Below, one piece after another: positions 1 to 49,805 of a stretch of DNA of 52,479 nt. Position 1 is the stretch's first letter, and each line of letters opens with the position of its first letter. Both the position numbers and the translations under genes were made by a program. The notes under the pieces were generated by a model. That model saw only the letters and a program-made list of their open reading frames with translations. It was not told where the DNA came from and made no database searches. The DNA is taken from positions 1 to 52,479 of the forward strand of contig JASFHL010000009.1 in the NCBI GenBank assembly GCA_050123235.1, written 5' to 3'. This stretch comes from Candidatus Woesebacteria bacterium. GTDB taxonomy: Bacteria > Patescibacteriota > Microgenomatia > UBA1400 > PJMF01.

Positions 1-2
1 AA

Positions 3-551
3 AGTTTCCTCAGGATGTAGGATTCCTAAAGTATCTGGTAGCATAAAACGTTTTATTTTTTCATTTTTTAGCCCATTTACTAAAAAAAATAGATAATCAG
101 GAGAATTTTTAATTCCATTGGACCAATCTTCTAAGTAAAGGTTAACTTTCATTTGAAATTGTTTAGCTTTATTAATTGTTTTTTTAATATCATCTAAATG
201 CCGCTGTGGAGTTTTTCTAAGTTGTACAGAAACATGTTTGAGTGAACCTTTACAAAGAAGATTCACAACTCTTCCTCCAGCCTGTTTGATCCATTGAAGT
301 GATTTACCGTCATCAATAAAAGCTAAAATTTCTATTTTTTCTAAATGATTATTTTTTTTAGCCCAATTAGTAATTTTTTTAACAGCTTCAAATTCTCCTT
401 TAGATACTCTGGCAGAAGCCACTTCAATTCGATCGACTAAAACTTCCTCTATTAGCATTTTAGCAATTAATAGTTTGTCTTCATGGTTAAAAGTAACTCC
501 AGCTGTTTGTTCACCATCTCTGAGAGTGGTATCCATAATGCTAATTTTCAT
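3..551 (-). CDS. cimA: (R)-citramalate synthase-like DRE-TIM enzyme (LeuA/CimA family); runs off the left window edge
   Basis: Not in the ORF track; translated by hand from ATG at 551: MKISIMDTTLRDGEQTAGVTF...DRIEVASARVSKGE...YLEDWSNG...MLPDTLGIL. DTTLRDGEQ is the LeuA/CimA motif. EVASARVS and YLEDWSNG resemble Leptospira/Bacteroidetes-type CimA. SD AAAGGA upstream. Confidence 0.75.
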   Translation of the reverse strand, partial: MKISIMDTTLRDGEQTAGVTFNHEDKLLIAKMLIEEVLVDRIEVASARVSKGEFEAVKKITNWAKKNNHLEKIEILAFIDDGKSLQWIKQAGGRVVNLLCKGSLKHVSVQLRKTPQRHLDDIKKTINKAKQFQMKVNLYLEDWSNGIKNSPDYLFFLVNGLKNEKIKRFMLPDTLGILHPEET

Positions 552-567
552 TTTTTCCTTTCTAAAT

Positions 568-595
568 AAAAAAATCTCCCTTAAGGGAGATTTTT
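568..595 (-). terminator. Attenuator terminator upstream of cimA
   Basis: Minus strand AAAAATCTCCC-TTAA-GGGAGATTTTTTT: perfect hairpin ending in a U7 tract, 16 nt before the cimA ATG. Confidence 0.85.
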
Positions 596-616
596 AAACT
601 ACAATATTAAATCCCC

Positions 617-670
617 CTATGTAGAGAGAGTAATAATAATGCTATTGAAAGTTTTTAAACTTTTGTTCAT
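617..670 (-). CDS. Ile-rich attenuation leader peptide MNKSLKTFNSIIITLST
   Basis: ATG(670)..TAG(617) with three tandem ATT codons. Lies between a consensus promoter and an antiterminator/terminator pair. Confidence 0.8.
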   Translation of the reverse strand: MNKSLKTFNSIIITLST

Positions 671-698
671 TTTTGATTTTTATTTTAGATGAGTAGTA

Positions 699-727
699 AT
701 TATATAACTTAAGAGAAATGCTGTCAA
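699..727 (-). promoter_or_regulatory. sigma70 promoter for the leader-cimA transcript
   Basis: Perfect TTGACA-17 nt-TATAAT on the minus strand. Confidence 0.85.
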
Positions 728-745
728 AGAAAATTTTTCTATAAG

Positions 746-1489
746 TTAAACTATCAGTTCATAATTCTGACATTTTTTTACTAATTCCTTAAATACTTGG
801 CTAGTAATTGTTTGATCTTTATCAACCAATTCTTCTTCCGGATTATAGTGAGTCTCCACTACTAAACCATCTGCTCCTGCTGCAATGGCTGACAAAGCTA
901 AATGAGGAACCATATCTCTTCTGCCAGCAGTGTGCGAAGGATCAACAATGACTGGCATTTTGTGATCATGTTTAACTACTAACATAGCATTTAAATCTAA
1001 AGTAAAACGCATTGCATCTGCTCCAGTTCTAATACCTCTTTCACATAAAATAACTTTATCTTTACCGATGTATTCCGCAGCTCCTAACCATTCTTTAACT
1101 GTAGCTATTAAGCCTCGTTTTAAAATGACAGGCCTTGGATCATCTTTCATCCTTTTGAGTAGTTCATAATTTTGCATGTTTCTAGCTCCTACCCATAAAA
1201 TATCAGCAACATCCTCTACAATTCCTATTTGATCTGGAGCTACCATTTCCATTACAACAGGCAAGCCAGTTTTTTCTTTTAATTCTTTGATCCAAGGAAT
1301 GCCTTTTTTTCCAACTCCCTGAAACGAATCAGGTTTGGTTCTTGGTTTCCAAAGTTGAGCACGAATAGCATGAGCTCCTGCTTTTTTAACTTCTTTAGCA
1401 ATACGTAAAATTTGTTCTCTTGAGGCAACAGAGCAAGGCCCACCAATAATTAAAGGTTTATTTTTTAATAGTCTTTTTCTGCTTAGCAT
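746..1489 (-). CDS. aroF: DAHP synthase type I-beta, catalytic barrel only
   Basis: GPCSV, KPRT, GARNMQN, LKRG, CERGIRT, DPSH and GADGL motifs. KPRT rather than KANRS indicates DAH7PS, not KDO8PS. 247 aa, no ACT or chorismate mutase extension. Confidence 0.9.
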   Translation of the reverse strand: MLSRKRLLKNKPLIIGGPCSVASREQILRIAKEVKKAGAHAIRAQLWKPRTKPDSFQGVGKKGIPWIKELKEKTGLPVVMEMVAPDQIGIVEDVADILWVGARNMQNYELLKRMKDDPRPVILKRGLIATVKEWLGAAEYIGKDKVILCERGIRTGADAMRFTLDLNAMLVVKHDHKMPVIVDPSHTAGRRDMVPHLALSAIAAGADGLVVETHYNPEEELVDKDQTITSQVFKELVKKCQNYELIV

Positions 1490-1525
1490 AATGATTTCCT
1501 TTTTTGATTTAATTAATTGAAGTTT

Positions 1526-2452
1526 TTAATTTTTCAAATTTAAATCTTTTAAATTTATTTTTTTAGTACAAGCTTTTTTCATAAATTGATAAATTTCTTT
1601 TTTATAAGGAATAGCTGTACCATTACCTGTTTTTCTACATTGCATGGCAGCTACTAAATTAGCAAAGTTAATAATTTTTTCCTCATTCCATTTGTTCAAA
1701 ACACCAAATCCGTAAGCACCACGGAAAACATCTCCTGCTCCAAGAGTATCAACTACATCGACTTGGTAGGCTGGATAAAAATTAGTTTTTTTGCCGTTAT
1801 AACTCAAACTGCCTAATCCTCCAGCTGTGACAATAATTGTTTTTTGAGCGATTTGTTGTAATTGTTTTAGATTATCCAATTGACTAAGTTTGTTGTTGTA
1901 TTTTTTTAAACTTTCAATTGGAATGATAGGATGTTCTGCTTTTTGGAGCATACTTAATGTCTTGCTTGAAATTTCAGTAGAAGGATCGATTACAATTGGC
2001 GTTGTTATTTTTTTCTTTTTTAAAATTTCTTGAAAAGCGATTGGTTCATGTCTATCAATAATAATTAAATCAATAGTTCTAATTAATGATGAACTAAGGT
2101 TTTTAGTGGGTCTATGTTTAATTCGGTCTTTAATAATTGTGCGCGAACCTGTTTTGCGATTGACTAAGACAGTATTAGTTTTAGTTTTAGCTTGTTGATT
2201 AATAATTAATTTAATATTTTCTTTTTTTAATTTCTTCTTGATGACTTTAGCTGTGTCATCATTGCCTAAAGAACAGATTAAAGTACATTGCACACCTAGT
2301 CGCGCTAATAAAATTAAAGCTGCTGGTACAGGGCCACCAACTGAATAAGAAGTTTGTGAAGCTTGTGTTTTTTCTCCGTCTTTTGGATAGTGCTTGATGA
2401 TATTGCTTTTGTCTAAAACGACTTCACCAATACCAAGTACTTTCATTTTCAT
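1526..2452 (-). CDS. PfkB/ribokinase-family carbohydrate kinase
   Basis: GGPVPAALILLARLG and VVDTLGAGDVFRG signatures. Start moved to ATG 2452 (AGGAGG 10 nt upstream), because the track's 2488 start runs through the attenuator. Confidence 0.88.
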   Translation of the reverse strand: MKMKVLGIGEVVLDKSNIIKHYPKDGEKTQASQTSYSVGGPVPAALILLARLGVQCTLICSLGNDDTAKVIKKKLKKENIKLIINQQAKTKTNTVLVNRKTGSRTIIKDRIKHRPTKNLSSSLIRTIDLIIIDRHEPIAFQEILKKKKITTPIVIDPSTEISSKTLSMLQKAEHPIIPIESLKKYNNKLSQLDNLKQLQQIAQKTIIVTAGGLGSLSYNGKKTNFYPAYQVDVVDTLGAGDVFRGAYGFGVLNKWNEEKIINFANLVAAMQCRKTGNGTAIPYKKEIYQFMKKACTKKINLKDLNLKN

Positions 2453-2455
2453 AAT

Positions 2456-2480
2456 AAAAAAACCTCCTAGTAGGAGGTTT
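2456..2480 (-). terminator. Attenuator terminator that also sequesters the PfkB Shine-Dalgarno
   Basis: Minus strand AAACCTCCT-ACT-AGGAGGTTTTTTT. The 3' arm is the AGGAGG SD. Confidence 0.85.
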
Positions 2481-2506: not shown

Positions 2507-2581
2507 TTACAACAAAGACCTCCTTTTATTTAGGAAGTAAAAGTAAAAGAAATACCAGTTACTTGTTTTGTATGTATTCAT
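2507..2581 (-). CDS. Aromatic-rich leader peptide MNTYKTSNWYFFYFYFLNKRRSLL
   Basis: ATG(2581)..TAA(2507) with eight consecutive aromatic codons (TGG TAT TTC TTT TAC TTT TAC TTC). Confidence 0.88.
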   Translation of the reverse strand: MNTYKTSNWYFFYFYFLNKRRSLL

Positions 2582-2590
2582 TAAGTATAG

Positions 2591-2619
2591 ATTATAAATA
2601 TGCAATTATACTTTTGCAA
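2591..2619 (-). promoter_or_regulatory. Putative sigma70 promoter for the aromatic leader
   Basis: TTGCAA-17 nt-TATAAT, overlapping the ridA 3' end, 9 nt before the leader ATG. Confidence 0.65.
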
Positions 2620-2986: not shown

Positions 2987-3340
2987 TTACTTACTGACTT
3001 TATCAACGATTTTCTTGAAAGTCGCCTCATCACTGACAGCTAATTCTGCAAGCATTTTTCTGTTAAGCATGATTTTAGCTTTTTTGAGTTGATTGATAAA
3101 TCTTGAATATTGAAGTTTTTCATCAATTGTTTTTAAAGCAGCATTAATTCTAATAATCCAGAGTTTTCTCATATCTCTTTTTCTCAGTTTTCTACCAATA
3201 TAAGCATATTGCCCAGCATGTAGTACTGCTTCATGGGCTCTCTTAAATAATCTACTATTAGTCCCACGATAACCTTTAGCTAGTTTTAAAATTTTTTTGT
3301 GTTTACGTCGTCTGACGACTCCAGTTTTTGCTCTAGACAT
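2987..3340 (-). CDS. rplT: 50S ribosomal protein L20
   Basis: MSRAKTG..AKGYRG, RKLWIIRINAA, LNRKMLAELA; operon context. Confidence 0.97.
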   Translation of the reverse strand: MSRAKTGVVRRRKHKKILKLAKGYRGTNSRLFKRAHEAVLHAGQYAYIGRKLRKRDMRKLWIIRINAALKTIDEKLQYSRFINQLKKAKIMLNRKMLAELAVSDEATFKKIVDKVSK

Positions 3341-36436: not shown

Positions 36437-37309
36437 TTATTTTTTTTTAAATTTTTTCGCGTAATCAACACAATAGTCAATCATTTTTCCAGGGATATTT
36501 GCTTTTGTACTTTGCATTAGACCAGTAAATTGAGGAGCTCTATTTACCTCCAATATTTTCATTTGTCCGTTTTCTTTAATCAGGTCTACTCCAGCAAAAG
36601 CATAGCCTAATGCTCGAGCTGCTTTAATAGCTAATTTTTCTTCTACTGCTTTTGGATTATAAATTTCAGCTTTACCACCTAAAGAGATATTATTACGAAA
36701 TTCATTCTGACTAGTAGCTACTCTTTTCATTGCGGCGATAACTTTGTTACCAATAACAAAAAAACGATAGTCACCATCATTTTTAATAAATTTTTGAATT
36801 AAAAGATGACTATGGTATTTATCAAAGAGTTTTTCAATTGAATTTTGATCTTTAATTAAATAAACTCCTCTCCCTTGTGATTGGTCAGTAGTTTTTACAA
36901 TACAAGGATATTGGATTTTTTCAGCAATCTTTTCAAAAGGTTGTTTACTTAAAAAAAGAGTATCAATGATCGGTAAATTATTTTCTGCCAGTTTTGTGTA
37001 TTCAAAACTTTTGCGATCTACCCATGGCAATTTGTTAACGAAAACTGGATCAAGTACTGGAATTTTTTTTTCTAAACAATAACTAGAGATAATGGTAGCT
37101 AATTCAGTATTCTTTTTAAGATGTCTAAAGTGAATCAAATCGTAGTCATCTATTGAATGATTATTTACCCTAATTTTGATTTTATTATCAGTAAAACTAA
37201 TTTTTAGTTCGTAGTAGTGATATAAATCAAGTTGTATTGACTTCTTTTTAGCTTCATGGACAAAGATTTTGTTGTTTTTGGTATGGGTCACTAAGAATAA
37301 TATTTTCAT
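36437..37309 (-). CDS. RimK-family ATP-grasp ligase
   Basis: SQGRGV, LIQKFI, DYRFFVIG, FRNNISLGG, GVDL, LEVN. Confidence 0.88.
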   Translation of the reverse strand: MKILFLVTHTKNNKIFVHEAKKKSIQLDLYHYYELKISFTDNKIKIRVNNHSIDDYDLIHFRHLKKNTELATIISSYCLEKKIPVLDPVFVNKLPWVDRKSFEYTKLAENNLPIIDTLFLSKQPFEKIAEKIQYPCIVKTTDQSQGRGVYLIKDQNSIEKLFDKYHSHLLIQKFIKNDGDYRFFVIGNKVIAAMKRVATSQNEFRNNISLGGKAEIYNPKAVEEKLAIKAARALGYAFAGVDLIKENGQMKILEVNRAPQFTGLMQSTKANIPGKMIDYCVDYAKKFKKK

Positions 37310-37326
37310 TGTGGGTATATTTAGAT

Positions 37327-38298
37327 TTAGTTCAAAGCTAACTGCTTTTCTACTAGATCTAATATTTTGGCAGCAATATTGATAGGTTTTCCTTTCATTG
37401 GATAATGATGCATTCTTAATCCTGGAGATTTATTTACTTCAATGATGCCAGCTTTGTTTTGCTGAGTGATATCTGTGTTTAGATTCTGGCACATCATATC
37501 TATGCCAATAACATTTAGATCACAGGCTTTAGCAATTTTTTCAAATAATTTTTTATTTTCTGGAGACACTTGATTTGTAACATTCCAAGCTTCACCACCA
37601 GTAGAGAGATTAGCGGTTTTACGAAGTATGACCTCTTTATTTTTTGATGGAATAGAGTCTAATGAGAGATTTTGTTCTTTTAGATATCCTTTTAAGAGAT
37701 TATCTATCTTGATTTTAGTTAAATTTCCTTCGTGCCCTTCTTTTCTCCATGGATGTTGATTTTTTTCATCGATCAATTGAGTAATGCTTTTTTTACCATC
37801 ACCAGTCACATAAGCTGCTTTTCTAAAAGCAGCTGCTACAAATTTGAAATCCACGCAAACAATTCTATATTCTGTACCTTCCAGCATCTCTTCAAATAAA
37901 ACTTTTTGTGGTTTTTCTTGATAGTATTTTTTAGCTTCTTCAATATCTTTGATGCCTACTATTACATCTCTGCCATGGGCACCAGCAATAGGTTTCATTA
38001 CTAATGGGAATTGTAATTTATCTATATTTTGAATTTCCTCTGAATTTTTTACGACCACATATTTAGCTGTTGGTAAGTCAAAATGAGTTAGAATTTTTTT
38101 TGTTAATTCTTTAAGATTAGCAATTACACAGCCAATGGCAGATTGAAATGAGGTTCTAGATCCTCTGGTATACCAATGCTTTCCATTCTTTTGCATCAGG
38201 ATAGTATTGTTATCACCAAAGGTAGTGCATTTAATTCCTCGTTTTTGAGCCTCTTGATACATAATTCTAGCACTAGCATCGAGTTTTATTTGTTTCAT
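37327..38298 (-). CDS. Stand-alone ATP-grasp ligase of the cyanophycin synthetase/GshF type
   Basis: VMKP..GAHGRDV, VTGDGKKSITQLI..KN, LRKTANLSTGG, IIEVNKSPGLRMHHYP. No Mur-ligase or GshA domain. Confidence 0.82.
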   Translation of the reverse strand: MKQIKLDASARIMYQEAQKRGIKCTTFGDNNTILMQKNGKHWYTRGSRTSFQSAIGCVIANLKELTKKILTHFDLPTAKYVVVKNSEEIQNIDKLQFPLVMKPIAGAHGRDVIVGIKDIEEAKKYYQEKPQKVLFEEMLEGTEYRIVCVDFKFVAAAFRKAAYVTGDGKKSITQLIDEKNQHPWRKEGHEGNLTKIKIDNLLKGYLKEQNLSLDSIPSKNKEVILRKTANLSTGGEAWNVTNQVSPENKKLFEKIAKACDLNVIGIDMMCQNLNTDITQQNKAGIIEVNKSPGLRMHHYPMKGKPINIAAKILDLVEKQLALN

Positions 38299-38313
38299 AA
38301 TAGTTATTATAAT

Positions 38314-39258
38314 TTAATTAATTAAATTATTAAATTGATTTAGATTTCCAATCTGTTTAATTTCTTGAAGATATTTTTTTATATCCTTAAAGAAAGTAGG
38401 ATAAATTATTTTTTTATCTTTAATCTGAATTTCATTTTTAATTTGATTAATTTGCTTTAAACTCAACCTACCAAGATAGAGTAAATGAGGATCATTAGCT
38501 TTGTTGATTAGCCAATCCCAGACTAAGACTGCTCCTTCTAAATAAGTAATATCTTTAGTAAAACCTCCAGCTTGTGATGTATCTTTTAATCCTCTTTTCT
38601 TTTTAACTACTATATTCCAGATAAAGTTTTCATTTAAATTAAATTTTTTTAGAGCAGCAAAAATTCGACTAAATGATTGAGTTCTAGCTAAATAACTAGC
38701 GTAATAATGATAATAACTTTTGTGCATGATTTTTTCTTTACGAAAAAGATAATTGTGAAGAGTAGCAATACCTTCTTCTGTTTTCCTGAAGCTAGGAGTT
38801 TCAGCCATTTTACCCAGTTTTTGTTTGTCGTGATTGTATCTACGTAAATAGTGAGTTTCTATTTCGTGATTAATTTTGCCAATGATTTTTTCTTTACTTA
38901 ATAAAATTGGAGTCTGAAAATAGAGTCCTTTTGAACCTAATTTAGCCTGACCAATATATTTTGGAGAATAATAAATAGGTATTTGCTTAAGACCTAATTG
39001 ATAAAAGACAGTTTTAATTAACTTATTCACTTCTTCAGTTGATGTTTCTACTTGTTTGCTTTTTAAGGGAACAGGATATTGTTGAAGCATTTTTTTACTA
39101 TGTAAAAAAATATGCTTTTTTGGTAAACCATAATAAGTTAATATTTTGCGATCAATTGCTTTTTTATATTTAAATTGAGGATTATAAGAAAAATCAGAGA
39201 AAAACTTTTTTCTTTCTTCTTGTATATTAACTGGTGTTAAATCACTGATAAAGCCCAT
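38314..39258 (-). CDS. DUF1704 / MATCAP-like metallocarboxypeptidase
   Basis: YNPQFKY, HEIETH (HExxxH), TEEGIA, KKRGLKDTS..GGFTKDITYLEG, LYLGRLS. Confidence 0.8.
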   Translation of the reverse strand: MGFISDLTPVNIQEERKKFFSDFSYNPQFKYKKAIDRKILTYYGLPKKHIFLHSKKMLQQYPVPLKSKQVETSTEEVNKLIKTVFYQLGLKQIPIYYSPKYIGQAKLGSKGLYFQTPILLSKEKIIGKINHEIETHYLRRYNHDKQKLGKMAETPSFRKTEEGIATLHNYLFRKEKIMHKSYYHYYASYLARTQSFSRIFAALKKFNLNENFIWNIVVKKKRGLKDTSQAGGFTKDITYLEGAVLVWDWLINKANDPHLLYLGRLSLKQINQIKNEIQIKDKKIIYPTFFKDIKKYLQEIKQIGNLNQFNNLIN

Positions 39259-40541
39259 TATTCACCTACTCCCACTAGAAAACCAGCTAGGTCTTTACGT
39301 CCTATTTCTATACGATGTTTACCTTTGTTAAGTTTTTTAGAGACAATCATAGCTGTTTTTAATCTTTTTTCTTTTAGTTTTACTTTAATTTCAACTACTG
39401 GCACTTTTCCCTCGCCGGCTTCTTGTTGAAACCAGAGTAAATCATCAACATCAATTAAACCCAATTGACTTGATAATTGTCCACTAATAGCACTTCTGTA
39501 TCTACCAGTATTAATAAGAGCAGTAACGGTTTGTTTTACCTTATTCTCACCTTGTACAATTACTTCTTCTCTTGGTTGAACAATAGTTAAACCTTCTTTA
39601 GCTTTAATCTTATCAGCAAAACTTTCAGCAAATAGCGCTTGGCTAATTCTCACACCATGGTCAGGATTTAAAACATTAAGGTCTTCTACTCTTTCTAATC
39701 TACGTCGCAAACCAGCTTTATTGGCTACTTGGATGGAAAGACCGGGATTAGCATTCAATTCTACCACCATGGGTCCTTGTTCCTTATGAAGAAATATATC
39801 TACTCCACTAAACATCAATTTTGCAGCATTGCTAGCTTCAATGGCTGTTTTTAAAACTTTAGTCCAGAAAGGAATGATGATACCGTTAAGTTTTTTTTTT
39901 GTTCCTGGTAAATATTTAATTAACTGATTTTTGTGTGCGGCAGCATAAGTAGTAATTCCAGTTGCCATATCAATGCCTACTCCGATAGCCCCTTGACTTT
40001 GATTAGCCCTTCCCTCTGATTCCTCAGTTGGTAATCTGAGTAGGGCCATGATTGGGACACTATTAAAAACAATTACTCGAATATCTGGGGTTCCTTTATA
40101 GGTGTATCTAAGTAGCTTTGGATGGATGGGAACTCTTTCTTCAATAATAATATGGTTTTTATCACCATAGGTACTGTATTGACCTTCTAAAATATCAAAA
40201 CAATGTAATTTAATATCTTCTAAATCCCAGATTTCACCTAATCTATCTTTCCACTCAAGTTTATTTTTATGTTTAGTTGAGAAGGCGACTACACCTTTCC
40301 CTGCATTGCCATTAGTAGGTTTGATCACAAAATCTTTTTCTAGTTTTTTCCAGTCGTAATCATTGATATCTTCAATTGTTCCCAAAATGCCATAAAGCTT
40401 AGCTGTGGGGATATTATTATTTCCCAGAAGAATCTTAGTGGCATACTTGGATGAACAGATAGCTTTTGCCGTATTAGAATTAAATGAAGTATAAAGCTGG
40501 TTACGGGCATTCATACCCAGAATTTCATTAGCTTTAATCAT
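39258..40541 (-). CDS. Alpha-L-glutamate-ligase-like ATP-grasp fused to a degenerate RimB/retropepsin-like domain
   Basis: ILGMNARN, FVIKP..GNAGKG, PDIRVIV, LRLPT..SEGRAN, ELNANPGLSIQVAN; C-terminal ALINTGRYRSAI...IGRKDLAGFLV. Confidence 0.82.
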   Translation of the reverse strand: MIKANEILGMNARNQLYTSFNSNTAKAICSSKYATKILLGNNNIPTAKLYGILGTIEDINDYDWKKLEKDFVIKPTNGNAGKGVVAFSTKHKNKLEWKDRLGEIWDLEDIKLHCFDILEGQYSTYGDKNHIIIEERVPIHPKLLRYTYKGTPDIRVIVFNSVPIMALLRLPTEESEGRANQSQGAIGVGIDMATGITTYAAAHKNQLIKYLPGTKKKLNGIIIPFWTKVLKTAIEASNAAKLMFSGVDIFLHKEQGPMVVELNANPGLSIQVANKAGLRRRLERVEDLNVLNPDHGVRISQALFAESFADKIKAKEGLTIVQPREEVIVQGENKVKQTVTALINTGRYRSAISGQLSSQLGLIDVDDLLWFQQEAGEGKVPVVEIKVKLKEKRLKTAMIVSKKLNKGKHRIEIGRKDLAGFLVGVGE

Positions 40542-41514
40542 ATTTTTTGTTTAAGAGGGAACCAAATCTAATATATTCTAAGAGACGTAGCCCAGTGTAT
40601 TTACTGATGATATAGTTGATGACTGCGACTCCAATCAGGGTAAGCTCTGGTTTCAGAATCACAAATTGTCTAATTTCTTCCATTCCAATAATCAAAGAAC
40701 AAAGTATAGCAATCAGTAAAGTTTCTAAAGTTAATGTGAAAGCTTCTCTTTGACTAGTAAATAATTGGGTTTCCATGAAATTTTCAGTTAAGAGCATAAT
40801 AATTAATAAAGGGAAAATGTTAAGCGTGAGTAGTGAGAATTTGTCAAAGTTGGAAGATATAATTAAAATGGCAAGGATGATAATTGATACACCCCAAAGT
40901 AACATGGCAGTTCTAGGTAAATAGGGCATTTTAAATTTCTTGATAATTTTTCTACTTAGAGTTGCAGCCAATAAAACTGCTAGAAAAATACTGGTGCCAG
41001 TGATGATGCCAGTAGATACAAAGGCGACTGATAAAACAGCCGGAATATAAATACCAAATCCTCTTAAACCTATGATATGTCTAGAAGCAGCAATAATTGA
41101 GGCAATTGTTGGGAACAAAATAAGCAAGACAATAATATTGGCAGGTAGTCCTTTTTCAATAGAGTTTCTGATAGCGTGTTGAAGAAAGTTATGCCAAGTT
41201 AATTTTCCAATCGGGTGTTGTTCTAGATATTGAACAAGATTGCTTTGTTGTTGGCTACTAGGATCTGTAATATCTTCATCTTTTTTCTTTTGAATCTTTT
41301 CTACTACTTCAGCTGATGGGGAGGAAAGTTTACTTGATTCAGTAGCTTCAGCAGAAGGAGTAGATCCTTCTGCTGCTGAGACACTCAGATCTTCTGCGGC
41401 TCTGATTACTTCAATATCTGTGATTTGAGCTTGTATTTTACTTGAATTAATCAAGGCTATAGAAGCTATGATAAAGTTAATAAAAAGGATGGTGAATTTA
41501 TTCTTAATTGGCAT
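40534..41514 (-). CDS. 7TM protein (7TM_transglut-like) with a short low-complexity ectodomain
   Basis: RHIIGLRGFGIYIP, YLPRTA, IFPLLII..TENF, KYTGLRLLEYIRF; signal peptide. Confidence 0.8.
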   Translation of the reverse strand: MPIKNKFTILFINFIIASIALINSSKIQAQITDIEVIRAAEDLSVSAAEGSTPSAEATESSKLSSPSAEVVEKIQKKKDEDITDPSSQQQSNLVQYLEQHPIGKLTWHNFLQHAIRNSIEKGLPANIIVLLILFPTIASIIAASRHIIGLRGFGIYIPAVLSVAFVSTGIITGTSIFLAVLLAATLSRKIIKKFKMPYLPRTAMLLWGVSIIILAILIISSNFDKFSLLTLNIFPLLIIMLLTENFMETQLFTSQREAFTLTLETLLIAILCSLIIGMEEIRQFVILKPELTLIGVAVINYIISKYTGLRLLEYIRFGSLLNKKYD

Positions 41515-41606
41515 AACAAACTATTATAGCAAGAAGCTTGGATATAAGGCGAGATTATTTTTATCATTACAAGATAGTTCTTGAGAAGAAAGGGGTAATG
41601 TTAAAG

Positions 41607-41969
41607 TTAAAGAAAAACCCCAATCAGGGATTGTAAGAAGCTAATAGCAAAGGAAATAACGACTAAAGTTCCGATAAAACCCAATTTGATACCTAGTATG
41701 CTCATTGCTTGGATTTGAAAGCCAGGTACTAAAAAGGTAGCTAACCATAACAGAGCAACATTGATGACTATAGAAAAAAGTCCTAAAGTCACAATATTGA
41801 TCGGTAAAAAAAGAATTTTAAGCACAGGTTTAGCGATTTTTTGTAAAAGAGTTAAGACAACCCCAGCCAAAATTAAAGTAGTCCAGTTAAGATAAGAGAC
41901 TGTAGGTATAGCCCAAGCTAGAATTAGGATTGTTAGAATAGTGATGATAATTGGTTTAAGAAGTTTCAT
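41607..41969 (-). CDS. YvlD-like 4TM 'phage holin family' membrane protein
   Basis: KPVLKILFLPINIVTLGLFSIVINVALL motif. Confidence 0.85.
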   Translation of the reverse strand: MKLLKPIIITILTILILAWAIPTVSYLNWTTLILAGVVLTLLQKIAKPVLKILFLPINIVTLGLFSIVINVALLWLATFLVPGFQIQAMSILGIKLGFIGTLVVISFAISFLQSLIGVFL

Positions 41970-42015
41970 ATATTATTTAGAATAGCAGCATTGATACTAT
42001 TTTAGCAATGATTTC

Positions 42016-43392
42016 TTATTTCAACATTTCTTTAATTCTCAATCTGCTATGTTGTTTTTTAGCAAAACGATGCGATTCATCTCTAATTTGTTGAATTAAT
42101 TGTAAACTAGGATGATCAGGTTGTAATCTGAGGATTTGATATGAAAGTTCTAATCGCTCTTTTTTTTCTTGTTTTTTAATGGGAATGATTATTCTATCAG
42201 GATTTTTTGCAATGCCAATGACAGGAATATTCCATTTTAGGCTAGATAAAACTGCTCTAATTTGACCTTTTCCACCATCAATGACAATAAGCTTGGGCAT
42301 TCCCCATTCAGGATGATTCTGTCTTCTGATAATAGCTTCTTTAAACATTTGATAATCATTGGGAGTATTAATAGTTCTGATATTAAATAAACGATAGTGT
42401 TTTTTAGCTGCCTGCCCTTGTTGAAATACAACCATAGAGACTGCAGGATTTGTTCCTTGAATATTGCTCACATCAAAACCTTCGATACGATCCAGTTTAT
42501 ATTTTTTGGGCAATGATAAATAGAAATGAAGAATTTTATTTAAATGATCAAGAGCATGTTTTATTTGTCCTTGTTTTAGTTTTGGTAAAATTAATTCCGG
42601 TTGAAGCTTGTATTTTTTTTCGGTTACTTCTTTGATTAATTGAATTTTATTTTTATAACTAGCTGCTTTTTCAAAAAGTTCTTTACTGGCAGCAATTTTC
42701 ATTTTTTTTTCTAATTGTTTAATTATTTTTTTCTTTTTACCTCTTAAAAATAAAATAAGTTCTTTAATATTAGCTTGATAGTCTGTGGCAGAAATTTGTC
42801 CAATACAAGCCCCAGGGCAAAGATCTAGCTGGTAATAAAAGCAAGCTTTATTCCTTCCTTTAGCAGCTTCATTACACCAAGGAAAAATTCTTCTGGCAAT
42901 TTTTAAAACTTCATTGAGTTTATATGAACTAGGAAAAGGTCCCAGGACTGTACCTTTGATTTTACCTTTATATAATTGTTTTTTTCTAATCTTCAATATT
43001 CTAGGAAATTTTTCATTAGTAAGATGGAGATAAATTGGACTTTTATCATCTTTTAATAGAATATTATAGACTGGTTGATGCAACCTAATTAATTCTGCTT
43101 CTATTAGTAGGGCCTCTAAATCACTTTCCAAAACTTGATACTCTAATTTTTTGGCAGTAGTGACTAATTTTTTAATTCTATCTGTAAGTTGGAAGTATCT
43201 TTTATAAGAATTAATTCTATTCCTAAGATTTTTAGCTTTACCGACATAAAGAATCTTATTTTTTTCTCCTAAAAATGAATAAACTCCCGGTTGCGAGGGT
43301 AATGATAATAATGATGGCAGCCATGGCAGTAAGGACGATGGGGTTATAGAAGAACTCAAATTTTTTGGAGATGCTGCTGATGACGAATTCAT
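42016..43392 (-). CDS. uvrC: Excinuclease UvrC (short form, no C-terminal HhH)
   Basis: PGVY..YVGKAKNL GIY-YIG, Cys cluster, UVR helix, RIEGFDVSNIQG, IDGGKGQ, RDESHRFA. Confidence 0.9.
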   Translation of the reverse strand: MNSSSAASPKNLSSSITPSSLLPWLPSLLSLPSQPGVYSFLGEKNKILYVGKAKNLRNRINSYKRYFQLTDRIKKLVTTAKKLEYQVLESDLEALLIEAELIRLHQPVYNILLKDDKSPIYLHLTNEKFPRILKIRKKQLYKGKIKGTVLGPFPSSYKLNEVLKIARRIFPWCNEAAKGRNKACFYYQLDLCPGACIGQISATDYQANIKELILFLRGKKKKIIKQLEKKMKIAASKELFEKAASYKNKIQLIKEVTEKKYKLQPELILPKLKQGQIKHALDHLNKILHFYLSLPKKYKLDRIEGFDVSNIQGTNPAVSMVVFQQGQAAKKHYRLFNIRTINTPNDYQMFKEAIIRRQNHPEWGMPKLIVIDGGKGQIRAVLSSLKWNIPVIGIAKNPDRIIIPIKKQEKKERLELSYQILRLQPDHPSLQLIQQIRDESHRFAKKQHSRLRIKEMLK

Positions 43393-45100
43393 AGCTGTTA
43401 CTGTATGATTGATTATTGATAATAATTTTAATTTTTTCCTGACTAATTAATCCTTTCTTATTATAAATAGTAATTGGAATTGAACTAGATTGAAATGGCA
43501 ATAGTTTAATTTCATCAATTTTTTTATTAAACTCAAATTCAAGTTTTGAATTTAGACCTTCAAAATTTAATTGGTTTTGATACCAAGCTCTACCAGTTTT
43601 ATTATGAAAATTAATTTGATAAAGACCTGGAATTGAAAAAAAGAAAAATTTCTTGGGCTGCAATTGGATTTCAATATCAGGGTTTATTTGAGGGAAATTT
43701 TCAGTAAATTCAATCTCTAGGTCCTTGCTTTCTTTTTGATCATTCTTATAAGAACCTGCAGGGTATGGTAATTCACTAGATTTACTATTAATAGCAAAAA
43801 CAAGATGATTTAAATCAAATTGGTTAAAATAATCAACCCCATTAGTAGTATCCCCCCAGGTGGGATCTACAGCAACCCAGCGTTTTTGTTCTTGATCATA
43901 ATATTCTGGCCAAGCGTGCAAAACATCAATCAGACCAAGTGGCCTGAGTTCTTCATTTTGACTATAAGCATAGCCAGTAATTCTTCTCGCAGGGATTTTT
44001 TGAGCACGAGCTAAAGTAATAAAAAGATCTGTAAATTCCTGACAAGTTGCTTGTCCTGATTGAATCAAAACTTTACTTGCTCCCAATCTTTCGAAATCTT
44101 GATTAATGTCTTCTTTAGTATAATCTAATTTATTGATCACAAAATCATAAATTGCTTCAGGACCTTGATGATCTTGGCTTAGAGCTTGGATATTATTGTC
44201 ATTTATTTCCCAATATTTATTAGCTTTAAGATCTTTATTAGAAAAGGAGCTTCCTAAGCTAGGATTTTGAATTTTAAGACTGATTAGAGCTTGGGCATCT
44301 AGCTTCACCACGGTTTGGCTATTAGCAGCTAACTTATAAGTAGCAATCCAATTACCATCTTCATCAATTTTAATATCTTCTGGTGATGGCTCAAGACTAT
44401 GATAGTGCATTGTCTGAAAAGCTGTGTCTGGTGGTAGAGCTATTTGTGTAATAGCAGTCTGATCATTAGGATTTTCTAAATGAAAGTTTAATTTTAGATT
44501 AAAAATTTGTTCTTCTCCAAAGATAATGGAAATACCTTTGCCAGCAGTATTTTCAAAAGTAGTAATGATATCATCATTGGTAACTTGAGTACGATGATCT
44601 AGATTAACTCTACTAGGTGCTCCAAATTTTTTTGGCGTGATAATAGTAGTTTTTAGATTTTGATAAGTATTAGTATTAGCTAATTGAGGAATTGTGACTT
44701 CCAAGACTTTACCATTGACAAGCGATATATTTGGATCTTTATAACTAATAGTAATGGTTCTAATTTTATCTTTTCCAACTACTTCATCAGGGAAAGTTAC
44801 TCCAATACTACTATATTTGTCTCCATTAACAACTTCTGCAGGGATTTCTTTTGAGCCATCAAAAACTTTAACATTTCGAATATCCTTTGAGCTAAGTTTG
44901 AGACCATAGCTATTAATATAAAAAGTAGGACTTAGATTTTTAATCTGAAGTGTATGTTCCACATAAGTATCAGCATTTTGGTTGACACTATAAATACTGT
45001 GAAGTGAAAATTCAAAATTCTCATTGGCAGAGACCTGTTTTACTATAGCCAAAAAAAGAAAAATTACGATGGAGAAGCTGTAAAAAATTTTTTTAATCAT
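43256..45100 (-). CDS. Membrane-anchored extracytoplasmic transglutaminase-like protein
   Basis: Signal peptide, TCQEFTDLF, IPARRITG, HAWPEY, VDPTW (Cys-His-Asp triad intact), C-terminal TM plus RRKK. Confidence 0.87.
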   Translation of the reverse strand: MIKKIFYSFSIVIFLFLAIVKQVSANENFEFSLHSIYSVNQNADTYVEHTLQIKNLSPTFYINSYGLKLSSKDIRNVKVFDGSKEIPAEVVNGDKYSSIGVTFPDEVVGKDKIRTITISYKDPNISLVNGKVLEVTIPQLANTNTYQNLKTTIITPKKFGAPSRVNLDHRTQVTNDDIITTFENTAGKGISIIFGEEQIFNLKLNFHLENPNDQTAITQIALPPDTAFQTMHYHSLEPSPEDIKIDEDGNWIATYKLAANSQTVVKLDAQALISLKIQNPSLGSSFSNKDLKANKYWEINDNNIQALSQDHQGPEAIYDFVINKLDYTKEDINQDFERLGASKVLIQSGQATCQEFTDLFITLARAQKIPARRITGYAYSQNEELRPLGLIDVLHAWPEYYDQEQKRWVAVDPTWGDTTNGVDYFNQFDLNHLVFAINSKSSELPYPAGSYKNDQKESKDLEIEFTENFPQINPDIEIQLQPKKFFFFSIPGLYQINFHNKTGRAWYQNQLNFEGLNSKLEFEFNKKIDEIKLLPFQSSSIPITIYNKKGLISQEKIKIIINNQSYSNSYEFVISSISKKFEFFYNPIVLTAMAAIIIIITLATGSLFIFRRKK

Positions 45101-49224: not shown

Positions 49225-49482
49225 CTAAATTTTTTTATATATTTCCTTACGATGGCCGACGTCTAAAATTATAATAATTAGTTGTTTATTTTTAATGAGA
49301 TAAATAATGCGATATCGTGAGAAACGTAATTTCCAGAGAGCTTTTAATTTTCCAGTTAACGGTGTTCCAATATTTGGATTAACTGATAAGCGATCTATGG
49401 CTTTAGCAAATGTAGAATGATATTTTTTGTCAATGTGTTTAATTGATTTTTGGGCTGTAGGAGTAAATTTAATTTGGTACAT
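49225..49482 (-). CDS. RelE/ParE-family toxin
   Basis: MYQIKFTPTAQK..NPNIG.PL.GKL..LWKLRFSRYRIIY..VGHRKEIY. ATG 49482. Confidence 0.9.
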   Translation of the reverse strand: MYQIKFTPTAQKSIKHIDKKYHSTFAKAIDRLSVNPNIGTPLTGKLKALWKLRFSRYRIIYLIKNKQLIIIILDVGHRKEIYKKI

Positions 49483-49504
49483 ATAGTGATTCAATCTAAG
49501 AAAA

Positions 49505-49771
49505 TTAGTCTAAAGTTAACTTTTTTTTAAGATCTTCCCAGTCAGTTAACTCACCTTTTTTAAATTCTTTGATACTTTTTTCTAAGTTTCTCATAAGTTT
49601 TTGGTCACTTAAGACTTCAATAGTTTCTTTGAGACGTTCATATTCTGTAGCATCTATCAATACAGCTTTGACTTTGCTTTTTACAGAAATATATATATCT
49701 TTGAGATTAATTTGCTTTATTAATGAAGGTAGCTGAGCTCTGGCTTGGGTAATAGATATAATTTTTTGCAT
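49505..49771 (-). CDS. Phd/YefM-family antitoxin
   Basis: ISITQARAQLPSLI, KAVLI..EYERLKETIEVLSD. ATG 49771. Confidence 0.9.
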   Translation of the reverse strand: MQKIISITQARAQLPSLIKQINLKDIYISVKSKVKAVLIDATEYERLKETIEVLSDQKLMRNLEKSIKEFKKGELTDWEDLKKKLTLD

Positions 49772-49777
49772 AATTTT

Positions 49778-49805
49778 ATTGTACATTTTTATGTACACTT
49801 GTCAA
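49778..49805 (-). promoter_or_regulatory. TA promoter with tandem TGTACA operator palindromes
   Basis: TTGACA-16-TACAAT, then 6 nt to ATG. TGTACA at 49780-49785 and 49792-49797. Confidence 0.8.

Follow-up and report, generated by a model that had tools for sequence, protein, structure and literature searches.

The contig JASFHL010000009.1 of the Candidatus Woesebacteria bacterium assembly GCA_050123235.1, from the candidate phyla radiation (CPR), was analysed over its full 52,479 nt (hereafter the window). Its minus strand carries a gene for a PfkB-family sugar kinase followed by aroF, which encodes a DAHP synthase (DAHPS; DAHP is the 7-phosphate of 3-deoxy-D-arabino-heptulosonate), the enzyme that condenses phosphoenolpyruvate (PEP) and erythrose 4-phosphate (E4P) into DAHP. 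The gene order on that strand is rplT (2987-3340), a RidA-family gene (2606-2980), and then an aromatic attenuator, the kinase and DAHPS. An earlier note on this DNA had placed the kinase first under such an attenuator, 36 nt before aroF and with no other aro gene in the unit, a layout that is borne out by the open reading frames (ORFs), Pfam domains and predicted hairpins, as follows.

2591..2619, minus strand: promoter-like site TTGCAA-17-TATAAT just 5' of the leader ORF, matching the consensus at only 10/12 positions, in a region whose shuffled versions had more such sites
2507..2581, minus strand: leader ORF MNTYKTSNWYFFYFYFLNKRRSLL, 24 codons plus stop (ORF reading)
2534..2557, minus strand: control codons WYFFYFYF, eight Trp/Tyr/Phe in a row (codon-run scan)
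2518..2538, minus strand: hairpin 1:2, ACUUCCU...AGGAGGU (folding and sequence)
2453..2480, minus strand: intrinsic terminator with a 9-bp stem at 2460-2480, a 3-nt loop and U7 at 2453-2459 (hairpin/terminator prediction)
1526..2452, minus strand: PfkB/ribokinase-superfamily kinase, YihV-like, 308 aa (PF00294, NCBIfam, fold)
1490..1525, minus strand: 36-nt spacer with AAGGA ahead of the aroF ATG (sequence; kinase stop at 1526-1528, aroF ATG at 1489)
746..1489, minus strand: core-only type I-beta DAHP synthase, 247 aa, without a regulatory domain (PF00793, TIGR01361)
699..727, minus strand: unit boundary, a sigma-70-like promoter TTGACA-17-TATAAT, 12/12 (consensus match)

An aromatic attenuator ahead of a conserved gene pair

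The leader region shows the classical 1:2, 2:3 and 3:4 arrangement of an attenuator. Segment 2 (AGGAGGU, at the end of the leader ORF) is complementary to segment 1 (ACUUCCU, within the aromatic codons) and also to the 5' arm of the terminator (ACCUCCU, about 2478-2472), the latter, antiterminating 2:3 pairing being read from the sequence alone; clustered control codons, a U-tract terminator and an alternative antiterminator are all present. Runs of at least eight Phe, Tyr or Trp occur four times among the 2,267,938 six-frame codon positions of the whole genome, and for the segment 2585-2450 the predicted folding energy is -29.2 kcal/mol, with a z-score of -3.1 relative to shuffled sequences. 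The Rfam model Phe_leader (RF01859) matched 2453-2570 on the minus strand with 43.5 bits (E 5.8e-5), under its gathering score of 55. Because the 3' arm of the terminator holds the kinase Shine-Dalgarno sequence (GGAGG, about 2466-2462, ten bases before the ATG at 2452), the terminator would also mask the ribosome-binding site. A shortage of charged aromatic tRNAs would stall the ribosome at the WYFFYFYF codons and free segment 2, which could then pair with the terminator 5' arm, permitting read-through and exposing the kinase Shine-Dalgarno sequence. A new promoter and leader unit starts behind aroF, so that the aromatic-attenuated unit comprises the kinase and DAHPS exactly, with no further aro gene in it.

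The DAHPS of the window matched PF00793 with 207.2 bits and passed the cut-off of the type I-beta equivalog-domain model TIGR01361 (291.3 against 267.75 bits); it contains the motifs GPCSV, WKPRT, DPSH and ETH..D. Behind the kinase, DAHPS sequences of three types were found across genomes, namely canonical (the window genome and loci L034 and L039), intermediate and very divergent (15-37 bits with Pfam). All 32 aligned sequences nevertheless retain GPC, K-x-R-T, a DPSH-type motif (DPSH, DPTH and variants) and E...D, and with them the Cys/His/Glu/Asp set that we take to be the metal ligands; K-x-R-T (KPRT in the window) is presumably the binder of the aldose phosphate. In most kinase-bearing genomes the kinase-linked DAHPS is the sole DAHP_synth_1 match, so that in genomes with the full pathway it must be the working first enzyme.

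Among 2952 candidates, 192 were relatives of the kinase at E <= 1e-20. A scan with one genome per species gave 80 loci, comprising 38 orthologs (L010-L047, 36-59% identity) and 42 paralogs (24-30%); ORFs in the neighbourhoods were called and clustered by BLAST, and representatives were annotated with Pfam. By their record titles the 38 ortholog loci come from Dojkabacteria, Pacebacteria, Roizmanbacteria, Levyibacteriota, Saccharimonadales, Gracilibacteria and 'Patescibacteria group', with some other automatic labels. At 32 of the 38 loci the kinase has a DAHPS-family gene next to it or in its vicinity. At 27 loci it follows the kinase directly, with a gap of -53 to +143 nt and often a 4-nt overlap; at three (L015, L016 and L045) a class II aldolase gene stands between the two, with overlapping stop and start codons; at L012 it lies directly upstream of the kinase and at L039 2 kb downstream, adjoining an aldolase gene. 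Four loci are cut off by a contig end no more than 277 nt from the kinase, and two (L024 and L032) have enough flank yet no DAHPS-family gene. At L025 and L047 the ORF caller returned the kinase frame in two pieces or not at all.

Two types of operon recur. In type A, thrS-infC-rpmI-rplT is followed by the kinase, DAHPS, aroB, aroA, aroK, aroE, aroD and aroC; in type B, the kinase and DAHPS are followed by genes for chorismate mutase, prephenate dehydrogenase/prephenate dehydratase (PDH/PDT) and an aminotransferase, and then by pheS-pheT or tyrS. A short aromatic leader (at least 5 aromatic residues in 8) precedes the kinase at 32 of 36 loci but was seen in only 13 of 306 control windows, and there is a terminator-like hairpin with a U-tract within 200 nt 5' of the kinase at 30 of 36, against 19 of 315 controls. 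At many of the loci L010-L047 the terminator 3' arm, GGGAGGT, is also the kinase Shine-Dalgarno sequence, 10-26 nt before the start codon, and such an attenuator could work on both transcription and translation. As grounds for giving up its proposal, the earlier note named a pairing of pfkB and aroF unique to this genome together with an enzyme that acts only on unrelated sugars; the presence of the pairing at 32 of 38 ortholog loci, in many CPR lineages, confirms the pair as a conserved attenuator-controlled module and makes a functional link of the kinase to DAHP synthesis very likely. In a full-text literature search we found no paper on the pairing of PfkB and DAHPS or on E4P supply in CPR.

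The module is rare. In an even sample of the phylum (401 genomes), the kinase (E <= 1e-40) was found in 3 genomes and a DAHP_synth_1 match in 34, and all 3 are among the 34; the kinase thus implies DAHPS, but not the reverse. Twelve DAHP_synth_1 loci returned from genomes without a kinase match had no PfkB gene beside DAHPS, and the short flanks of six of them contained aro genes. Among 60 relatives at the level of the order, a close ortholog was found in G041 alone (59% identity), and three further matches were weak paralogs, which indicates that the module is patchy within the order.

Kinase family, predicted pocket and metabolic context

The kinase matched PF00294 with 107.3 bits (gathering score 25.8) over residues 25-282 and reached no NCBIfam cut-off. 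The best model was that of ribokinase (TIGR02152), over the full length but with 113.6 bits against a cut-off of 299.65, and the hexose-phosphate kinase models TIGR03168 and TIGR03828 covered the C-terminal third only, far under their cut-offs (42.4 against 216.4 and 41.5 against 292 bits). The PfkB signature is intact: G39 of the di-Gly motif and D235, G238, A239, G240 and D241 of DTxGAGD are invariant in 32 of 32 aligned orthologs, and G40 is kept in 31. The Lys and Asn that we take to come after the di-Gly motif of E. coli ribokinase have no counterpart, positions 42-44 being V/P/A. With a profile of the 32 orthologs, the best solved relative was the E. coli sulfofructose 1-kinase YihV (118.7 bits), which was also the top Foldseek match (25% identity) of an AlphaFold model with a pLDDT of 94.6. 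Ribokinases, fructokinases and ketohexokinases rank close behind YihV in the profile and Foldseek searches.

In the available text of PMC8006165, D13 of YihV is assigned to the C3 and C4 hydroxyls of the sugar, S95 to the C4 hydroxyl and D244 to catalysis, and K27, R138 and N109 form a triad that binds the sulfonate. In our alignment D13, D244 and R138 correspond to D14, D241 and R134, each present in 32 of 32 orthologs, S95 to T94 (24/32) and K27 to K28 (21/32, in a gappy loop). N109 aligns with position 108, where 29 of the 32 orthologs have Arg or Lys and 2 have His, so that the sulfonate triad is not reproduced; R104, H135, E136 and a D-P-S-T-E stretch likewise show little or no variation. 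A pocket in which the Arg and the Lys remain and a third basic residue takes the place of the Asn would fit a phosphate better than a sulfonate, which, judging from the alignment, points to a ketose phosphate that would be phosphorylated at C1. Genes of sulfoglycolysis (SQ isomerase, SFP aldolase and SLA reductase) were found neither among the ORFs of the window nor among the neighbouring genes clustered for the 38 loci. No fused form of the kinase (540-2000 aa) was found at E <= 1e-30, which is weak evidence by the nature of that search.

For the metabolic context, we compared 29 kinase-bearing genomes, namely the window genome and those of 28 of the 38 loci, hand-picked before the results were seen (L012, L014, L020, L023, L028, L032, L036, L043, L044 and L046 were left out), with 29 kinase-less genomes of the phylum sample that have a DAHP_synth_1 match (G316 and G279 were dropped for weak or broken matches). 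Transketolase_N is present in 26 of the 29 kinase-bearing genomes, including the window genome, where the transketolase is split (contig C2, 55015-56912). Transaldolase (TAL_FSA), in contrast, was found in only 2 of the 29, against 19 of the 29 kinase-less genomes, and the search of the window genome returned no match. In one genome (locus L117; G135, contig C126, 5366-7693), a distant PfkB relative in which the D-R-H-E motif is conserved lies in an operon between the genes for transaldolase and ribulose-phosphate 3-epimerase.

Class II aldolases of family PF01116 were matched in 13 of the 29 kinase-bearing genomes and DeoC-type aldolases in 8. In four of them (G064, G065, G083 and G087), PF01116 was matched by nothing but the aldolase located in the kinase-DAHPS operon or next to it. 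The window genome gave no DeoC-type match and no PfkA-type phosphofructokinase (PFK). It also seemed to have no aldolase at all, a result overturned when relatives led to a class II aldolase-like protein of 443 aa, a divergent one (PF01116, 53.3 bits; contig C7, 5216-6547, beside pgk) that had escaped the six-frame PF01116 search. This gene stands in a row with an RHH-nucleotidyltransferase gene and pgk (C7, 5216-8635, locus L116), and close homologs of 418-469 aa occur in three other CPR genomes.

The genome itself, at 1.13 Mb in 18 contigs, is 98.5% complete and has a gene content typical of CPR. A six-frame Pfam search of it returned one DAHP_synth_1 gene, one DHQ_synthase match (contig C16) and one EPSP_synthase-family gene, which is MurA, and no chorismate synthase, SKI, Shikimate_dh_N, DHquinase I or DHquinase II. 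Profile hidden Markov models built from CPR orthologs likewise found no aroE, aroD or aroC in it, and a CM_2 domain search gave no match; none of the six middle enzymes of the shikimate pathway was found. The DHQS-like gene of contig C16 was rejected as AroB, since its score of 250.9 falls short of the aroB cut-off (305) and it is part of a sugar/cyclitol-type cluster. This cluster (C16, 11-11298, locus L004, on a 12-kb contig of 28.5% GC) has the DHQS-like gene as a candidate sugar-phosphate cyclase among kinase-like, SDR, nucleotidyltransferase, VOC/glyoxalase, GT4, methyltransferase, DegT-aminotransferase and GT2 genes, a content that presumably resembles C7-cyclitol clusters. The survey of transketolase, transaldolase, aroK and aroB-aroC that the earlier note had called for thus returned the split transketolase but no TAL_FSA, SKI, aroB or aroC.

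Of the 29 kinase-bearing genomes, 14 gave a chorismate synthase match, and DHQ synthase was found in the same 14 in addition to the C16 gene of the window genome. Shikimate_dh_N was matched in 13 of the 29, that is, in twelve of those 14 and in G070, with no match in G078 and G086. The 15 genomes in which no aroB or aroC was found keep the attenuator, the kinase and a motif-intact DAHPS, and most of them also chorismate mutase, PDT/PDH and the aminotransferase. In a quick IQ-TREE kinase tree, genomes with and without aroB and aroC are interleaved, with five changes, at least two of them forced by well-supported branches, indicating that the absence of these genes is not the accident of one lineage. 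The middle steps may be missing because the contigs were systematically lost in binning, because intermediates are exchanged with a host, or because a novel route is used.

Possible roles of the kinase

The reading that we favour, at a probability of roughly 0.4, is that the kinase acts as a 1-kinase of sedoheptulose 7-phosphate (S7P), and perhaps also of fructose 6-phosphate (F6P), that, with an aldolase, would supply E4P to DAHPS. It is the simplest account of five findings together: the kinase is coupled to DAHPS across genomes, its pocket is of a phosphate type, three operons have an aldolase gene inserted, transaldolase is mostly missing, and the distant relative stands in a pentose-phosphate context. 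Transketolase would yield S7P, which the kinase, presumably with ATP, would convert into sedoheptulose-1,7-bisphosphate (SBP); a class II aldolase, the putative partner, would split SBP into dihydroxyacetone phosphate (DHAP) and E4P, and the E4P would pass to DAHPS. The net effect would be an ATP-driven supply of E4P in genomes without transaldolase. According to the available text of PMC7029132 and PMC12203962, an S7P kinase and an aldolase stand in for transaldolase in Entamoeba and in cellulolytic clostridia. Of the feeder steps suggested in the earlier note, a heptose- or hexose-phosphate kinase with an aldolase fits the YihV-like pocket, the aldolase of the three operons and the near-absence of transaldolase. 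Its tetrose kinase fits poorly, since a free tetrose would offer no anion to the conserved basic pocket, and its replacement of a missing pathway kinase fails on the operons of full-pathway relatives, which include a SKI-family shikimate kinase.

Several observations weigh against the favoured reading. Transketolase alone can convert F6P and glyceraldehyde 3-phosphate to E4P, so the kinase is not strictly required, and it occurs in only 3 of the 34 sampled CPR genomes with a DAHP_synth_1 match. Ten of the 29 kinase-less genomes likewise lack a transaldolase match, both sampled genomes with the more distant kinase relative have transaldolase, and the genomes compared are related and not independent, so that the transaldolase contrast is to be taken as a trend and not as a statistic. 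Neither PF01116 nor DeoC-type matches were found in 10 of the 29 kinase-bearing genomes, in a search that also overlooked the divergent copy of the window genome. Finally, aroB and aroC were not found in 15 of the 29 kinase-bearing genomes (the window genome and 14 others). The last point would suit a different arrangement, in which the pathway is split between host and episymbiont, the symbiont making the feedback-controlled first intermediate and finishing Phe and Tyr from imported chorismate or prephenate, or in which a new route leads from DAHP to prephenate; the kinase would then be part of a metabolic hand-off. We consider this decidedly unlikely.

The kinase could instead act on a free, salvaged sugar, turning ribose into ribose 5-phosphate or fructose into F6P, feed the transketolase network and raise E4P indirectly. 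The full-length match to the ribokinase model (113.6 bits), the ribokinases, fructokinases and ketohexokinases close behind YihV and the tal-kinase-rpe operon of the distant relative, which would suit a ribokinase too, all speak for such a role. Yet the score is far under the ribokinase cut-off of 299.65, three further PfkB paralogs in the window genome have similar ribokinase scores, the invariant Arg134, His135 and Arg104 and the basic residue 108 would have no role with a neutral sugar, and pentoses cannot yield E4P without transaldolase or the SBP route; we regard a free-sugar kinase as unlikely, though to be taken seriously. The pocket, which would suit F6P, the phosphate analogue of sulfofructose, equally well, the want of a PfkA-type PFK in the window genome and the aldolase gene within three operons could also be explained if the enzyme were a PfkB-type 6-phosphofructokinase that, under aromatic shortage, drives hexose phosphate to trioses and PEP, the second substrate of DAHPS. 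A glycolytic enzyme is, however, not expected to be restricted to the rare module-bearing CPR genomes (3 of 401) or to stand under an aromatic attenuator, and the hexose-kinase and 1-PFK models scored 42 bits against cut-offs of 216-292, which leaves this role improbable.

A carboxylate, too, could bind in the basic pocket, and 2-keto-3-deoxygluconate (KDG) kinases are weak relatives; by analogy with them, the kinase might phosphorylate an acid sugar such as 3-deoxy-D-arabino-heptulosonate (DAH) to DAHP and so recapture DAH that had been dephosphorylated or imported. This is a distant prospect at best, as K-x-R-T, the presumed aldose-phosphate binder, is present in all three types of DAHPS, so that DAHP should arise already phosphorylated, and the inserted aldolase and the transaldolase pattern would be left unexplained. 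That the kinase substitutes for a missing shikimate kinase would agree with the lack of a SKI-family gene in the window genome, but we give it hardly any credence: in full-pathway relatives one operon holds both the PfkB kinase and a SKI-family AroK, which is either separate or fused to AroA, and the window genome, without aroD/aroQ, aroE, aroA and aroC, offers no pathway neighbours. The SKI-family kinase in the type A operons rules this substitution out.

E4P supply is a classic bottleneck in aromatic biosynthesis. If the S7P/F6P 1-kinase reading is true, these bacteria would have a dedicated kinase that is co-regulated with DAHPS, and the SBP bypass would have been recruited a second, independent time, from a different kinase superfamily. 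It would provide a testable function for a PfkB subfamily (192 matches at E <= 1e-20) labelled 'carbohydrate kinase' or 'sulfofructose kinase'. Genomes that retain the first and last but not the middle steps of the pathway bear, in addition, on the dependence of CPR bacteria on their hosts.

Neighbouring units and comparison with known systems

Behind the boundary promoter lies a second leader unit, which runs to the end of the contig.

617..670, minus strand: leader ORF MNKSLKTFNSIIITLST plus stop, with three consecutive Ile codons (ORF reading)
570..595, minus strand: terminator before the CimA-like gene, with two hairpins in the 570..727 region (hairpin prediction)
3-551, minus strand: CimA-like (citramalate synthase) gene, cut by the contig end (NCBIfam)

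The element ahead of the CimA-like gene is probably an isoleucine attenuator, judging by its codons and hairpins; Rfam gave weak Phe_leader matches only in this region. The CimA-like gene is split over two contig ends, with the N-terminal 183 aa in the window (1-551) and the other 208 aa on contig C15 (19-645), so that the contig of the window (C9) and C15 abut; the protein is without a LeuA-type regulatory domain. On C15, a third attenuator of similar build (656-790, locus L090) has a leader, MTNHKTNNNFFFFFFNSSLKEVVGI plus stop, at 656-733 with six Phe codons and a terminator, AAACCTCC...GGAGGTTTTTTT, ahead of a PDT-like gene, pheS and pheT. The joined order is therefore aromatic attenuator-kinase-DAHPS; Ile attenuator-cimA; and Phe attenuator-PDT-like gene-69-aa ORF-pheS-pheT.

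Two further groups of genes lie on the minus strand of the window. One (36437-45100) is a run of RimK-like and sugar-transfer ATP-grasp genes with genes for a MATCAP-like peptidase, a transglutaminase-core protein and a 7TM-transglutaminase-associated one, and has the look of a system for peptide modification or for the cell surface. The other (49225-49798) is a toxin-antitoxin pair, ParE with Phd/YefM, between uvrB and uvrA.

Among known systems, the attenuator is closest in build to E. coli pheL-pheA (Rfam RF01859), with which it shares a short ORF containing a run of control codons, the 1:2, 2:3 and 3:4 pairings and a U-tract terminator. It differs in its mixed Trp, Tyr and Phe codons, in a terminator 3' arm that is also the Shine-Dalgarno sequence of the first gene, in its CPR host and in a score below the Rfam gathering score. 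Core-only, unregulated type I-beta DAHPS enzymes include those of Pyrococcus furiosus and Aeropyrum pernix, which the DAHPS of the window resembles in its size of about 250 aa and in having no N- or C-terminal regulatory domain; transcriptional control by attenuation and the coupling to a kinase gene set it apart.

With the ribokinase RbsK (TIGR02152) the kinase shares the superfamily, the lid-plus-Rossmann architecture, the di-Gly motif and GAGD, and is separated from it by a score of 113.6 bits against the cut-off of 299.65. Four residues align with those of YihV (PDB 7AG6, 7AGH and 7AGK), as far as these are described in the available text of PMC8006165, namely the Lys that acts in trans, the Arg of the pocket, the Asp that binds the sugar and the catalytic GAGD Asp, whereas the exchange of Asn109 for Arg/Lys, the invariant His135 and Glu136, the lack of sulfoglycolysis neighbours and an identity of 25% distinguish the two. 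The proposed route would be alike to the SBP bypass by pyrophosphate-dependent PFK and fructose-bisphosphate aldolase of Entamoeba histolytica and cellulolytic clostridia in the phosphorylation of S7P at C1, the aldolase cleavage to E4P and DHAP and the absence of transaldolase. In that bypass, as presented in the available text of PMC7029132 and PMC12203962, a kinase of the PfkA superfamily works with pyrophosphate for pentose metabolism in general, whereas the kinase proposed here, its activity putative, is a member of the ribokinase superfamily, presumably dependent on ATP and co-transcribed with DAHPS under an aromatic attenuator.

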